Assembly (NCBI RefSeq): GCF_013315695.1
Contig: NZ_CP054353.1
Length of the DNA: 64,000 nt
Reading direction: 5' to 3' (one strand)
Source of the DNA: Escherichia coli
GTDB lineage: Bacteria; Pseudomonadota; Gammaproteobacteria; Enterobacterales; Enterobacteriaceae
Shown here: positions 57,001 to 63,000 of the stretch, in pieces
Layout: each line of letters starts with the position of its first letter
How positions within the stretch are numbered: the stretch's first letter is position 1
Program-made: the position numbers

Positions 57001-60000
57001 CAGCGGGCGCACCTCTTCCGTGCGCTTACGATCATCCAGCACCAGACGGCCTTTCACTTCGCCCGTTTTGGCATCTATCGCCGTGACCGCGCTGTTTACA
57101 GTGTTACCAAACCACAACGTCTGAGTCGTGTTATTGATGGTGGCACCAAACGGCTTGAGATCGTTATGGATCGCCTGCGTCACTTCCAGAGTAACCGGAT
57201 CAAGACGATAAACCACGCCGCCTTTATCCAGTTTGCGGCTTTGCGAAGTGGCGAGCCACAGCGCGTTTTCTTGCTGGCTATAAGCCATTTCGTAGGCACC
57301 TTTACCTACCGCTTTACGCAGCATTTCTTCTGCGGCCTGCGTACTGAATGATGAAGCAACAAGCAATGAACCTAACAGTAATGAACCACGCAGGCGCGAT
57401 GAAAACAGATGACGTAAATGCATGACGACTCCCTTTGATGAACCGATATTTTTGCTGCTTCACAATGCTTCGCTAAGCGTAATCATCGTTACGCCCTTGT
57501 TATAAATGGGAATGGTAATCATTATTTTCTCAAATGTGGAGCATTTCTTGCCGTTACGACTACAATTTTCTCAATTACTTAACGTATCGTGCCGTTTCGT
57601 TTTCCATAAATTTACAATTTTATTACTATGACGGTGTTTTCCCCATTCTTAACCTGGCTTTTTTCATGAAGATTTTTTCCGTCCAACAGACCGTTTTGCC
57701 CGCACTGCTTGTCCTTTCCCCCGTTGTTTTTGCCGCTGATGAACAGACCATGATTGTCAGTGCCGCACCGCAGGTGGTTTCAGAACTGGATACCCCAGCA
57801 GCCGTGAGCGTGGTGGATGGCGAGGAGATGCGCCTGGCAACACCGCGCATTAACTTGTCTGAATCACTGACCGGAGTGCCTGGTTTACAAGTACAAAACC
57901 GGCAGAACTATGCGCAAGATTTACAGCTGTCGATTCGCGGATTTGGCTCCCGCTCCACTTACGGAATTCGTGGTATTCGCCTGTATGTGGACGGTATTCC
58001 CGCCACCATGCCCGACGGACAAGGGCAGACATCCAACATCGATTTAAGCAGTGTGCAAAATGTGGAAGTGCTGCGTGGCCCCTTCTCTGCTCTGTATGGC
58101 AACGCGTCTGGAGGTGTAATGAATGTCATCACCCAGACCGGACAACAGCCACCAACCATTGAAGCCAGTAGTTACTACGGCAGTTTTGGCAGCTGGCGCT
58201 ATGGGCTGAAAGCAACAGGCGCAACGGGCGACGGCACACAGCCTGGCGATGTCGATTACACCGTCTCAACCACGCGTTTTACGACCCACGGCTATCGTGA
58301 CCATAGTGGCGCACAGAAAAATTTAGCCAATGCCAAACTGGGCGTTCGCATTGATGAAGCCAGCAAATTAAGCCTGATTTTCAATAGTGTGGATATCAAA
58401 GCAGATGACCCAGGTGGGCTAACCAAAGCAGAATGGAAGGCGAATCCACAACAAGCGCCTCGTGCAGAACAGTACGACACGCGAAAAACCATCAAGCAAA
58501 CTCAGGCTGGGTTGCGCTATGAGCGTAGCCTGAGCGCGCAAGATGATATGAGTGTGATGATGTATGCCGGAGAGCGAGAAACGACCCAGTACCAGTCAAT
58601 CCCCATGGCCCCGCAACTTAACCCGTCACATGCGGGCGGCGTGATTACTCTGCAACGCCATTACCAGGGGATAGACAGCCGCTGGACACACCGTGGTGAA
58701 CTGGGCGTTCCGCTCACGTTCACTACCGGCCTGAACTACGAAAACATGAGTGAAAACCGCAAGGGCTACAATAACTTCCGCCTGAATAGCGGCGTGCCGG
58801 AATACGGGCAAAAAGGTGAGTTGCGCCGCGACGAACGCAATCTGATGTGGAACGTCGATCCCTATTTACAGACGCAGTGGCAGCTGAGCGAAAAACTGTC
58901 GCTGGATGCTGGCGTGCGCTACAGCTCCGTGTGGTTTGATTCCAACGACCATTACGTTACTCCGGGTAACGGCGATGACAGCGGTGATGCCAGTTATCAC
59001 AAATGGCTACCTGCCGGTTCGTTAAAATATGCAATGACCGATGCCTGGAATATCTATCTGGCAGCCGGGCGAGGTTTTGAAACGCCGACGATTAATGAGC
59101 TGTCTTATCGTGCTGACGGTCAAAGCGGTATGAACTTTGGTTTAAAACCCTCCACCAACGATACAATTGAGATCGGCAGTAAAACGCGTATTGGTGATGG
59201 GCTGCTTAGTCTCGCATTGTTCCAGACCGACACCGATGATGAAATTGTTGTCGATAGCAGTAGCGGTGGGCGTACGACTTACAAAAATGCCGGAAAGACC
59301 CGTCGTCAAGGCGCTGAACTGGCATGGGATCAACGTTTCGCGGGAGATTTTCGCGTAAAAGCGTCCTGGACCTGGCTCGATGCGACCTATCGCAGCAATG
59401 TGTGCAATGAACAGGATTGTAACGGTAACCGGATGCCAGGGATCGCCCGTAATATGGGCTTTGCGTCGATAGGTTATGTACCGGAGGATGGCTGGTATGC
59501 AGGTACGGAAGCGCGTTATATGGGCGATATTATGGCAGATGATGAAAATACGGCCAAAGCGCCGTCTTATACTCTCGTCGGCTTATTCACCGGGTATAAA
59601 TACAATTACCACAATTTAACTGTGGATTTATTTGGTCGTGTCGATAATTTATTCGATAAAGAATACGTTGGTTCTGTCATTGTCAATGAGTCAAACGGGC
59701 GATATTACGAACCTGCACCCGGGCGAAATTATGGTGTCGGCATGAATATTGCGTGGCGATTTGAGTAATTACCTTGATGCCCGGTATTTGCTGGGCATTT
59801 ACGGTAATGACTCCAACTTATTGATAGTGTTTTATGTTCAGATAATGCCCGATGACTTTGTCATGCAGCTCCACCGATTTTGAGAACGACAGCGACTTCC
59901 GTCCCAGCCGTGCCAGGTGCTGCCTCAGATTCAGGTTATGCCGCTCAATTCGCTGCGTATATCGCTTGCTGATTACGTGCAGCTTTCCCTTCAGGCGGGA

Positions 60001-63000
60001 TTCATACAGCGGCCAGCCATCCGTCATCCATATCACCACGTCAAAGGGTGACAGCAGGCTCATAAGACGCCCCAGCGTCGCCATAGTGCGTTCACCGAAT
60101 ACGTGCGCAACAACCGTCTTCCGGAGCCTGTCATACGCGTAAAACAGCCAGCGCTGGCGCGATTTAGCCCCGACATAGCCCCACTGTTCGTCCATTTCCG
60201 CGCAGACGATGACGTCACTGCCCGGCTGTATGCGCGAGGTTACCGACTGCGGCCTGAGTTTTTTAAGTGACGTAAAATCGTGTTGAGGCCAACGCCCATA
60301 ATGCGGGCTGTTGCCCGGCATCCAACGCCATTCATGGCCATATCAATGATTTTCTGGTGCGTACCGGGTTGAGAAGCGGTGTAAGTGAACTGCAGTTGCC
60401 ATGTTTTACGGCAGTGAGAGCAGAGATAGCGCTGATGTCCGGCGGTGCTTTTGCCGTTACGCACCACCCCGTCAGTAGCTGAACAGGAGGGACAGCTGAT
60501 AGAAACAGAAGCCACTGGAGCACCTCAAAAACACCATCATACACTAAATCAGTAAGTTGGCAGCATCACCGGCATTTACTTTAACGATTGTATTGCTGAT
60601 ATAAAATAGCAATATTTTGTTGCATAATTTCAGCAAGACAATGTCTGCATCCCTCTTTGTCTTTTGCTTTTAACGCGGCGAGTAATAGATGATAGTTTTC
60701 TATACGCTCCCGTAATTCCGCTGGATTGATCGCTTCATAGAGATAATGTAAACCAGGTCCCATCCTGACCCACAGTTGCTCAATCATCTCACACAGGATG
60801 GGCATATTTGAACGATGATAAATCGCTAAGCGAAATAGCCTGTTCGCATCAATGATTTGTTCCATGTCGCCCTTTTCTTGCGCCTGCTGTAATTTCTCGA
60901 GCAATTCCTCTAGTTCCGCCAGGTCTTGCGGGGTGAGGTTTTCAACAGCCAGAGTAACTGCCATTAATTCCAGCTCGTAGCGGATCCGATTGATTTCGTC
61001 TAATTGACGTTTCCCCACTTCCGGAACTGTAAATGCTTGCGCTGGTGCGACAGAAAGCGCATTCACCGAAACCAGACGTAATAATGCTTCACGCACAGGT
61101 GTAATACTCATACCTAATTGCTCCGCCAGATTTTTAGTAATCAGGCGTGCGCCAGGTTTTAGTGCGCCAATACTAAGCTGATGTTTCAGGTCGTTCTCAA
61201 CCTGCAGAGTCAAACTGACATGTTTCATTTTTTCCGTTCCAGGCATTTTACTTCCTTCGCGTGTTTTCTGTCCAACCCTGCCTGCATGGCAGAAGGAGTT
61301 AACCTGGGGTATTAAAGTGAATAATCATAAACCACTCACCTTTGTTGTTATTAGCAGCAGAACAATGACGTGGTTAGTTAATTAAAGCTGAAAATAAGCT
61401 TTTTGCCTGGATTTTTATGGCGGCTTTACGCCGCCGTCGTATCTTTAATCATCACCCGCCACGCGGATCACCACTTTGCCGAAGTTTTTACCCTTCAGCA
61501 GGCCGATAAACGTCTGTGGCGCATTCTCTAAACCGTCAGTAATTTCTTCGCGGTAGTGGATTTTATCCTCTTTCACCCATTGCCCCATCTCCTTCTGAAA
61601 CTCATGGATGCGGTGACCATAATCCTGAGCAATAATAAACCCTTGCAAGCGAATACGTTTTTTCAGCACCGTAGCCATCAACAAAGGTAAACGATCCGGA
61701 CCGGGTGGTAGCTCTGTAGCGTTATAGCTGCTCACTAAGCCGCAGACGGGAATGCGCGCAGATGTATTAAGTAACGGTAGCACCGCATCAAATACTTTAC
61801 CGCCCACGTTTTCATAATAGATATCAATACCTTTTGGGCACGCTTTCTCCAGTTGTTCGGCAAAATCATCCGCGTGATGGTCAAGACAAACATCAAAGCC
61901 TAACACCTCGGTAGCATGGCGGCATTTTTCCGCGCCACCGGCAACCCCCACCACCCTGCAACCTTTAAGTTTGCCGATTTGCCCCACCGTTGCTCCCACA
62001 GGACCTGTCGCCGCCGCAACCACCAGCGTTTCGCCCTCTTTAGGCTGACCGATATCCAGCAGCCCCATATAAGCAGTAAAGCCTGGCATCCCCAGCACAC
62101 CCAGCGACCACGATGGATTTTGCGGATGATCGCCAAGTTTCACCAGTTCATCACCACTGGATATGTCATAGTCCTGCCATCCACTGTAGCCCAGTACCCA
62201 GTCGCCAGGCTGATAATCAGGATGATTCGACTCCACGACACGGCTCACCGTACCGCCGACCATCACGCCGCCAATATCAACCGGCGGTGAATAAGATGGC
62301 TCATCGCTCATACGTCCACGCATATACGGGTCCAGTGACAAATAAACTGTGCGCAGTAACACTTGTCCTTCACCCGGTGTGGCGACATCATCTTCTTCAA
62401 GACGGAAATTCTCCGGAACCGGTGCGCCATGCGGACGCGAGGCCAGAACCCAACGGCGGTTACGCTGCTTTTGTTGCCCCATAATGCTCTCCTGTGCTTT
62501 TGGCATGAATCCATCAATAGTAGCAGGCTCGCAGGAATGGTTTTGTTTGCAGCCGTCACATCCCCTCTGCAACACGCAATAATTTCATCGAGGAATCCGT
62601 TGCTTCGGGCTGTTTTCGATAGTATTGATAACGTCATCATCATTATTTTATTGAGGCCAAACATGTCCATCCGTTTTGCCCGCAAAGCCGACTGTGCTGC
62701 CATTGCGGAAATTTATAACCACGCCGTGTTGTATACGGCGGCTATCTGGAATGACCAAACGGTGGATGCAGATAATCGCATTGCCTGGTTTGAAGCGCGG
62801 ACTTTAGCTGGTTATCCAGTGCTGGTGAGTGAACAAGATGGCGTAGTGACGGGATATGCCTCGTTTGGCGACTGGCGTAGTTTCGATGGTTTTCGCCATA
62901 CCGTGGAACATTCGGTTTATGTCCATCCCGATCATCAGGGCAAAGGTCTGGGGCGTAAATTGTTAAGCCGATTGATTGATGAAGCGCGGGATTGCGGGAA

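Follow-up and report, generated by a model that had tools for sequence, protein, structure and literature searches.

An intact IS1 element between the convergent genes pqqU and mcbR of Escherichia coli MSB1_4I, at a junction that IS1 has entered repeatedly

Here we describe a complete IS1 element lying between the convergent genes pqqU and mcbR of Escherichia coli MSB1_4I, and show that this junction is a recurrent target of IS1, having received about 16 independent insertions in about 19 of 5,426 complete genomes (counted within ±500 bp). The element is of a known kind, a textbook insertion sequence whose insertion is already annotated in RefSeq; the recurrence is new here. Very probably the MSB1_4I copy arose recently and in this strain only, when an intact IS1A-type element moved by simple transposition into the AT-rich 35-bp spacer between the two genes, with a nearly neutral outcome. 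The sequence analysed, hereafter the window, is a stretch of 64,000 nucleotides from a record that is a complete circular chromosome. In the literature the terms IS1 and mcbR co-occur in two papers, neither of which connects them.

The anatomy of the element (Table 1) is that of the IS1 family. Its termini are imperfect inverted repeats of about 23 bp starting with GGT(G/A)ATG, and a perfect 9-bp repeat, GGCATTTAC, stands on either side, in keeping with the duplications of 8 or 9 bp that the family generates. This 9-mer occurs only four times on the + strand of the window, two of them flanking the element, and because it is so scarce the exact pair around a complete IS1 is not a matter of chance. 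All three Pfam domains of the transposase exceed their cut-offs (PF03811, 69.9 bits; PF12759, 98.4 bits; PF03400, 260.7 bits), and the reconstructed InsAB' protein scores 245 bits against the NCBIfam equivalog NF033558, for which the cut-off is 100. With the IS1A/IS1E type of E. coli K-12 the element shares its length, its terminal repeats, the insA/insB' arrangement with a -1 frameshift at A6C, the promoter within the left repeat, the 232-aa InsAB' product and a 9-bp duplication made in AT-rich DNA; there is no structural difference, and the location alone is particular to MSB1_4I. The preliminary description had labelled the element copy C, and we did locate three 768-bp copies in the window, 100% identical to one another, at 14439-15206 (+), 50979-51746 (+) and 59803-60570 (-). 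Only copy C carries a target-site duplication; copies A and B are without one. Copy C is 100% identical to at least three neighbouring IS1 copies, these two included, and this identity together with its intact parts suggests that it has been active recently.

Table 1. Features of IS1 copy C and its surroundings, in window coordinates.
Feature	Position	Strand	Remark
Complete IS1 (IS1A type), 768 bp	59803..60570	-	RefSeq label: 'IS1-like element IS1A family transposase, programmed frameshift'
Target-site duplication, left copy GGCATTTAC, 9 bp	59794..59802		Single-copy in the MS 21-1 empty site (locus L003 1995-2003)
Target-site duplication, right copy GGCATTTAC, 9 bp	60571..60579		Ends 1 nt short of the mcbR stop codon
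IS1 left inverted repeat, IRL GGTGATGCTGCCAACTTACTGAT	60548..60570	-	Faces mcbR; 18/23 positions match IRR
IS1 right inverted repeat, IRR, outside-in GGTAATGACTCCAACTTATTGAT	59803..59825	-	Faces pqqU
insA, 91 aa, GTG start	60240..60515	-	Pfam Zn_ribbon_InsA and HTH_Tnp_IS1
insB' frame, 167 aa, -1 relative to insA, DDE catalytic domain	59818..60321	-	Pfam DDE_Tnp_IS1, E = 3.5e-78
AAAAAAC slippery motif, -1 frameshift giving the 232-aa InsAB' transposase	60258..60264	-	Sequence of copy C
Promoter-like site CTGCCA-16-TATGAT, overlapping part of IRL and directed into insA	60536..60563	-	Promoter scan; presumably the known IS1 promoter
Native spacer hairpin ATGCCCGG/TATTTG/CTGGGCAT, probable pqqU terminator stem	59777..59798	+	Kept whole on the pqqU side
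Native TTTGAGTAATTACC spanning the pqqU stop, inverted 12/14 match to the IRR tip (59803-59816)	59760..59773		Lengthens the hairpin after insertion
pqqU (formerly yncD), TonB-dependent receptor, CDS intact	57666..59768	+	NCBIfam NF041535 TonB_rec_PqqU, 1312 bits (cut-off 1200)
mcbR (yncC), GntR/FCD-type regulator, CDS intact	60581..61246	-	Protein WP_001119575.1, the same in IS-free strain MS 21-1

The two genes converge on a native spacer of 35 bp, with a local GC content of 0.33-0.34, and neither coding sequence is broken. From the pqqU stop codon (TAA, 59766-59768) it is 25 nt to the duplication and 34 nt to IS1; the preliminary description gave the second of these distances, under the older gene name yncD, since superseded by pqqU. 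On the other side, the mcbR stop codon (TAA on the minus strand, 60581-60583) is 10 nt from the end of IS1 and 1 nt from the duplication, a gap that had been put at 2 bp. That description was also right in calling this a simple insertion with a 9-bp duplication between convergent genes: the near-identical strain MS 21-1 has an empty site whose mcbR flank matches the window at 100% identity over 2,030 bp and whose pqqU flank does so at 99.85% over 2,011 bp; both flanks are collinear with the window, so that the insertion is a simple one. The exact junction is present in one of the 5,426 complete genomes, MSB1_4I alone. The genome does hold many identical IS1 copies (at least 40 matching pieces), which can mislead assemblers, and the missing duplications at copies A and B could point the same way; against the perfect duplication at copy C, the collinear flanks and a chromosome that is complete and circular, it is hardly credible that the junction reflects misassembly or a rearrangement.

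Published work describes for IS1A a tendency to insert no farther than 5-10 kb from a copy already present, duplications of 8-9 bp and a preference for AT-rich DNA (PMC5009759), a pattern that fits the location of copy C, its GGCATTTAC duplication and the GC content of its target. The donor was probably an identical copy lying 3.5-8 kb from it; such local hopping is supported, though another identical copy from farther off in the chromosome could have served just as well. Staggered cuts 9 bp apart produced the duplication, and the insertion probably persists because landing between the ends of two genes costs little; the site is part of an AT-rich patch hit by IS1 repeatedly across E. coli.

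The point of entry is the 3' flank of the only hairpin in the spacer, which has a GC-rich stem of 8-10 bp starting 8 nt past the pqqU stop. A consensus terminator scan called this hairpin in neither the empty nor the occupied site (the tail 3' of the stem reads UUUACUUUAA without IS1 and UUUACGGUAA with it) because the T-tract is interrupted, and we therefore relied on folding energies in its place. In the empty site the pqqU strand folds at about -16.0 to -16.4 kcal/mol (z -3.5), and the mcbR strand at -9.4 kcal/mol (z -1.5), with an A.C mismatch and no U-tract. These values belong to a T allele found in MSB1_4I and MS 21-1, in which the mcbR-sense fold is weakened; under the C allele, which most strains carry and which stands at the 15 further loci whose spacer is unbroken, both strands fold into the hairpin, with energies of -18.2 and -15.6 kcal/mol. 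On this basis the hairpin is a probable terminator of pqqU. As a short, GC-rich structure standing alone in the 35 bp that separate two stop codons, it resembles the bidirectional terminators of convergent E. coli genes (the class of Ju et al. 2019; ynaJ-uspE in bioRxiv 10.1101/2022.10.23.513370), unlike which the present hairpin, recognised here by its folding, is weakened in the mcbR sense by the T allele and, with IS1 in place, would serve the pqqU side only. No known structured RNAs or tRNAs were found at the insertion site.

According to the preliminary description, IS1 displaced whatever terminator had served both genes, and this holds for one side only. Because GGCAT is part of the duplicated 9 bp, the complete hairpin persists beside pqqU, where GAGTAATTACC now pairs with the IS1 tip GGTAATGACTC and the extended fold is predicted to strengthen from -16.4 to -26.6 kcal/mol; the change on this side is limited to the downstream T-tract, from TTTACTTTAA to TTTACGGTAA, and termination of pqqU is probably little altered. 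On the mcbR side the adjacent hairpin, already weak, is gone, and mcbR now lies 777 bp from it. Transcripts of mcbR would no longer meet the hairpin and would enter IS1 through IRL, in the direction that is sense for the transposase gene insA. Duplication at insertion can thus restore a terminator hairpin next to one end of the element, and a terminator entered by an insertion sequence need not be a terminator destroyed.

Read-through or antisense transcription from the insertion is possible; what we say of either, and of termination, in MSB1_4I is deduced from the sequence and its folding. On a stronger version of this idea, the insertion matters for regulation because the split of a shared terminator changes phenotypes that depend on mcbR or pqqU (biofilm and colanic acid; PQQ uptake). 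The loss of the adjoining hairpin, after which mcbR runs straight into IS1, speaks for it, and the IS1 promoter together with mcbR read-through could carry transcripts over the element toward the 3' end of pqqU. Hairpins of convergent genes have moreover been proposed to position collisions of RNA polymerase and so to stop read-through (bioRxiv 10.1101/2022.10.23.513370). However, the hairpin is wholly retained on the pqqU side and still stands between both genes, the mcbR-sense hairpin was weak in this lineage before IS1 arrived, and both coding sequences are unaltered. A promoter scan of both IS1 ends found only the element's own inward-facing promoter, so that outward-facing promoters, which we had considered, were rejected. 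IS1 is also classically polar to transcription that runs through it. We consider a regulatory consequence of this kind unlikely, and expression of the copy C transposase could shift more than that of mcbR or pqqU. Transcription into a chromosomal IS1 from upstream boosts both insAB' transcription and transposition (PMC12428005), but the direction of any effect on the activity of copy C is uncertain because older work, Machida et al. 1983 as cited in PMC12428005, reported a repression of IS1 cointegration by read-through.

The recurrence at the junction, which the preliminary description did not mention, involves insertions in both orientations, with duplications of 8 or 9 bp and IS1 variants that are 91-100% identical. 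The 35-bp spacer itself took five of the events, and the MSB1_4I insertion and four others in the spacer leave mcbR intact. Five independent events crowd into 20 bp in or beside the hairpin (L003 1985-2004), with a sixth 10 bp beyond; others are scattered along about 400 bp of the 3' half of mcbR, at the pqqU end and on the curA side. At least nine mapped events break or delete the mcbR coding sequence (LR-17-1, CUVET19-1426/W21, 873.10, Z142-1, AL.H8, HD12481, CUPF06, ET776/ES9 and P30_L1), and larger deletions occur in B27 and WP4-W18. From the total IS1 counts, a roughly uniform expectation would be about 12 genomes per kb, or about 0.24 genomes per 20 bp; we rejected uniform density as a poor null, since most IS1 copies are clonally inherited or sit in few loci, and took five empirical control loci instead, in which 0, 0, 1, 2 and 7 genomes carry IS1. 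Of these controls, the yncE/pqqU promoter region, matched in AT content and 2 kb distant, has no insertions, and the AT-rich bdm/osmC region has IS1 in about 7 genomes. An apparent orientation bias of nearby IS1 copies was discarded, because it arose from a query design that joined pieces on the same strand only; a query with IS1 flipped added 10-11 genomes.

AT-richness and weak selection probably account for most of this recurrence. A more specific cause would be that some feature of the site, either an extrudable hairpin in the spacer or the sequence at the pqqU stop that resembles an IS1 end, recruits the transposase beyond what AT-richness and tolerance would bring. The five events in 20 bp, set against the rough uniform expectation, and the empty AT-matched control favour such a feature, as does TTTGAGTAATTACC, whose match to the IRR tip is tied for the best outside IS1 in the 64 kb. 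Yet that match, which was noticed post hoc, stops short of the inner repeat: it shares first place over 11 and 14 nt but drops out of the top matches over 18 or 23 nt, and we have demoted the pseudo-IS1 end to a minor candidate as a targeting signal. The insertions also extend well beyond the hairpin over the 3' half of mcbR, another AT-rich region (bdm/osmC) collects IS1 too, and selection may purge insertions from promoters, which weakens the yncE/pqqU control. A site for IHF was rejected as an explanation, the consensus WATCAANNNNTTR having no match in the 4-kb locus. Recruitment by a feature thus seems to us doubtful, if somewhat plausible, and that the spacer and the mcbR 3' end form a true feature-directed hot spot of natural E. 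coli, built on an extrudable terminator palindrome or a pseudo-IS1 end, is improbable. If it were true, the events would amount to parallel, recurrent mcbR knock-outs and to 3'-end rewiring, with the MSB1_4I copy as a variant that spares the coding sequence. Positive selection in IS1-rich lineages for losing or altering mcbR, with MSB1_4I as a mild regulatory member of an adaptive series, could be read from the mapped disruptions and the larger deletions, but the MSB1_4I insertion and four others in the spacer spare mcbR, IS1 has likewise struck the pqqU end and the curA side, about 0.3% of genomes are affected, and IS1 events are the one type of mcbR mutation on which the argument draws; we regard it as very unlikely.

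A near-neutral landing in AT-rich DNA finds its closest likeness in the regional IS1 hot spots known from such DNA, for example upstream of bglGFB (PMC12428005, PMC11043490; AT preference in PMC5009759), where many independent insertions of either orientation likewise gather in a few hundred bp, duplicate 8 or 9 bp and follow no strict target consensus. The bgl insertions, however, are selected for activation and centre on a silenced promoter, whereas those at pqqU/mcbR occur in natural genomes without known selection and centre on the 3' end of a gene and its terminator. For MSB1_4I itself the insertion is an ordinary one of little consequence, both genes being intact. For E. coli at large, a patch of about 400 bp with about 16 events in 5,426 genomes, most of them disrupting the biofilm and colanic-acid regulator mcbR, is a handy natural locus at which to study the target choice of IS1 and the recurrent loss of mcbR.

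All of the defining features of IS1 that can be tested on the sequence were found in copy C, the element between the convergent genes pqqU (as yncD is now called) and mcbR. Its left and right inverted repeats (IRL, facing mcbR, and IRR, facing pqqU) match at 18 of 23 positions, and a promoter-like site within IRL is directed into insA. A -1 shift at AAAAAAC would yield an InsAB' of 232 amino acids; the reconstructed fusion carries the InsA zinc ribbon, IS1 HTH and IS1 DDE domains, and against the NCBIfam IS1 equivalog it reaches 245 bits (cut-off 100). It is a textbook IS1, already annotated in RefSeq as an IS1A-family transposase with pqqU and mcbR as neighbours, and both gene identities are confirmed by NCBIfam equivalogs. 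Measurement bears out the preliminary description of an IS1 with a 9-bp duplication between convergent genes, 34 bp past the yncD stop; the duplication said to end 2 bp before the mcbR stop in fact ends 1 nt short of it, the element itself ending 10 nt away. Both genes are spared by the insertion.

Features of copy C and its surroundings (window coordinates)
Feature	Position	Strand	Detail
pqqU/yncD stop	59766-59768		
IS1-end-like TTTGAGTAATTACC	59760-59773		native, spans pqqU stop
Rebuilt hairpin	59777-59798		pqqU side
T allele	59792		1993 in L003, the IS-free MS 21-1 locus
Direct repeats GGCATTTAC	59794-59802, 60571-60579		9 bp, identical, flanking copy C
IS1 copy C	59803-60570	-	768 bp, measured on window sequence (59600-60800 read)
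IRL	start of element on minus strand	-	GGTGATGCTGCCAACTTACTGAT
IRR	end of element on minus strand	-	complement of GGTAATGACTCCAACTTATTGAT
insA	60515-60240	-	91 aa
insB' frame	60321-59818	-	overlaps insA
Slippery motif AAAAAAC	60264-60258	-	
mcbR stop	60581-60583	-	
16-nt inverted repeat	60587-60602, 60627-60642		native, mcbR 3' end, 88% complementary; L003 2011-2026, 2051-2066
IS1 copy A	14439-15206	+	
IS1 copy B	50979-51746	+	
pptA-yddH-nhoA-yddE	~47700-49900		
yncG	~53866-54483		RefSeq pseudogene
Fourth IS1A copy	~64025		starts ~25 bp past window end; 7726-7801 in L001, the MSB1_4I locus

The 1.8-kb region is present in one piece, at 100% identity, in strain MSB1_4I (NZ_LR898874.1; rectal swab, Australia), while the copy C junction occurs in no further genome among 5,426. 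The site is empty in strain MS 21-1, whose flanks show 100% identity over 2,030 bp on the mcbR side and 99.85% over 2,011 bp on the pqqU side; its McbR protein is identical to that of MSB1_4I. Because the junction is unique and the empty site has near-identical flanks, copy C is a recent, strain-specific, simple insertion. The three IS1 copies in the window are 100% identical, and only copy C has a duplication. Copies A and B abut truncated genes (dosP is without its N-terminus, dosC is absent, and an alkyl-sulfatase/MBL-fold gene is split), a pattern that suggests IS1-associated adjacent deletions. A fourth identical copy truncates ortT. IS1A tends to insert 5-10 kb or less from an existing copy, with duplications of 8-9 bp and a preference for AT-rich sequence in which a clear motif is absent (PMC5009759), and the MSB1_4I chromosome, with its four identical copies in ~51 kb, fits this published short-range tendency. 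Copies B and C form inverted repeats around ~8 kb (50979-60570) that hold a sulfatase fragment, a GGDEF gene, yncG (with an internal stop in MSB1_4I), ansP, yncE and pqqU, an arrangement that could readily undergo inversion or composite-transposon-like mobilisation. The pptA-yddH-nhoA-yddE segment also occurs on plasmids in several E. coli strains, beside or flanked by IS1 (e.g. H191-H194, H199, H201-H203), and IS1 has apparently mobilised it.

In the reconstructed empty site, the stop-to-stop spacer is 35 bp and contains a single hairpin, ATGCCCGG-TATTTG-CTGGGCAT, which folds at -16.4 kcal/mol (z -3.5) in the pqqU-sense RNA, followed by UUUACUUUAA, and at -9.4 kcal/mol (z -1.5) in the mcbR-sense RNA, with an A.C mismatch and without a U-tract. 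The T allele in CTGGGCAT, carried by MSB1_4I and MS 21-1, weakened the mcbR-sense fold before IS1 arrived; the C allele (CCGGGCAT), present in 15/15 other loci with an intact spacer, is perfectly palindromic, with folds of -18.2 and -15.6 kcal/mol. With its good fold on both strands, the C-allele hairpin matches the type described for convergent pairs (bioRxiv 10.1101/2022.10.23.513370). A simple terminator scan called the spacer hairpin in neither the empty nor the occupied site; its folding and position suggest a terminator role.

The IS1 target was the 3' flank of this hairpin, and because GGCAT is common to the stem and the duplicated 9-mer, the full hairpin is rebuilt on the pqqU side, where only the distal T-tract changed. 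There, pairing between the IS1 tip GGTAATGACTC and the native GAGTAATTACC that lies at the pqqU stop lengthens the structure, which now folds at -26.6 kcal/mol (z -6.2). Downstream of mcbR, A-GTAAATGCC now leads into IRL, and significant structure is absent there (z -0.1). The displacement of a shared terminator, as proposed earlier, thus holds for mcbR, from which the hairpin is now 777 bp away, but not for pqqU, whose termination is probably little affected. Transcripts of mcbR would run into IS1 in insA-sense orientation, and the mRNA would acquire an IS1-derived 3' extension. Upstream transcription into chromosomal IS1 raises insAB' transcription and transposition, and an upstream terminator lowers both (PMC12428005); because that paper also cites an older finding in the opposite direction, in which, as cited there, IS1 cointegration is repressed by read-through, the direction of any effect on copy C is uncertain. 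A promoter scan gave no outward-facing promoter-like site at either IS1 end, and no Rfam families or tRNAs lie within 57000-63000. Regulatory effects of copy C, including the read-through or antisense transcription raised in the preliminary description, are possible but unsupported.

Junctions of 19 further IS1-bearing loci were mapped onto the empty site. Five independent events fall within the 35-bp spacer (B27, XJ6.2/ABW_A32/33, Z142-3, MSB1_4I and E1620). In P30_L1 the insertion is 10 bp into mcbR, and roughly nine further events, some of them accompanied by neighbouring deletions, map to the 3' half of that gene. One event is in the pqqU 3' end, and others are toward curA. The mapped events occur in both orientations, with duplications of 8 or 9 bp and IS1 variants 91-100% identical; the single orientation seen in the first search was an artefact of same-strand joining, and a flipped-IS1 query doubled the set. 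Several insertions in other strains are grouped on or around the 16-nt inverted repeat of the mcbR 3' end. Two mcbR loci are compound: in CUPF06 an additional 81-bp piece of IS1 (L009 3519-3599) sits next to a divergent IS1 (92% identical), and B27 combines IS1, ISKpn26 and a ~740-bp deletion.

For comparison, five other loci of the window were searched as controls with a query of flank, IS1, reverse-complement IS1 and flank, a design giving ~70% coverage whichever the IS1 orientation.

IS1 near pqqU/mcbR and the control loci
Locus	Position	Gene orientation	GC ±50 bp	Genomes with IS1 within ±500 bp
pqqU/mcbR		convergent	0.34	~19
yncE/ansP		convergent	0.52	0
nhoA/yddE		convergent	0.50	1
osmC/ddpF		convergent	0.56	2
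yncE/pqqU		divergent	0.35	0
bdm/osmC promoter region	~23840-24870	divergent	0.31	~7/5,426

Of the six loci tested, the pqqU/mcbR junction is hit most often and is a genuine regional hot spot for IS1, with roughly 16 events within ±500 bp among the 5,426 genomes and a local GC of 0.33-0.34 at the insertion cluster. The AT-rich bdm/osmC region is a second recurrent IS1 target. Because that region is also hit repeatedly, AT-richness and tolerance of insertion in a non-essential gene end probably account for much of the hot spot. An IHF consensus is absent at the locus. As for a more specific signal, TTTGAGTAATTACC agrees with the IRR tip at 12/14 positions in inverted orientation and pairs with the inserted IS1 end. 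Over 11 and 14 nt it shares first place among non-IS1 matches across the 64-kb window, but over 18 or 23 nt it does not; noticed post hoc, the resemblance is suggestive at most. A literature search found no paper connecting IS1 with mcbR. The recurrent targeting of pqqU/mcbR is a modest population-level curiosity, and it does not make the insertion novel.
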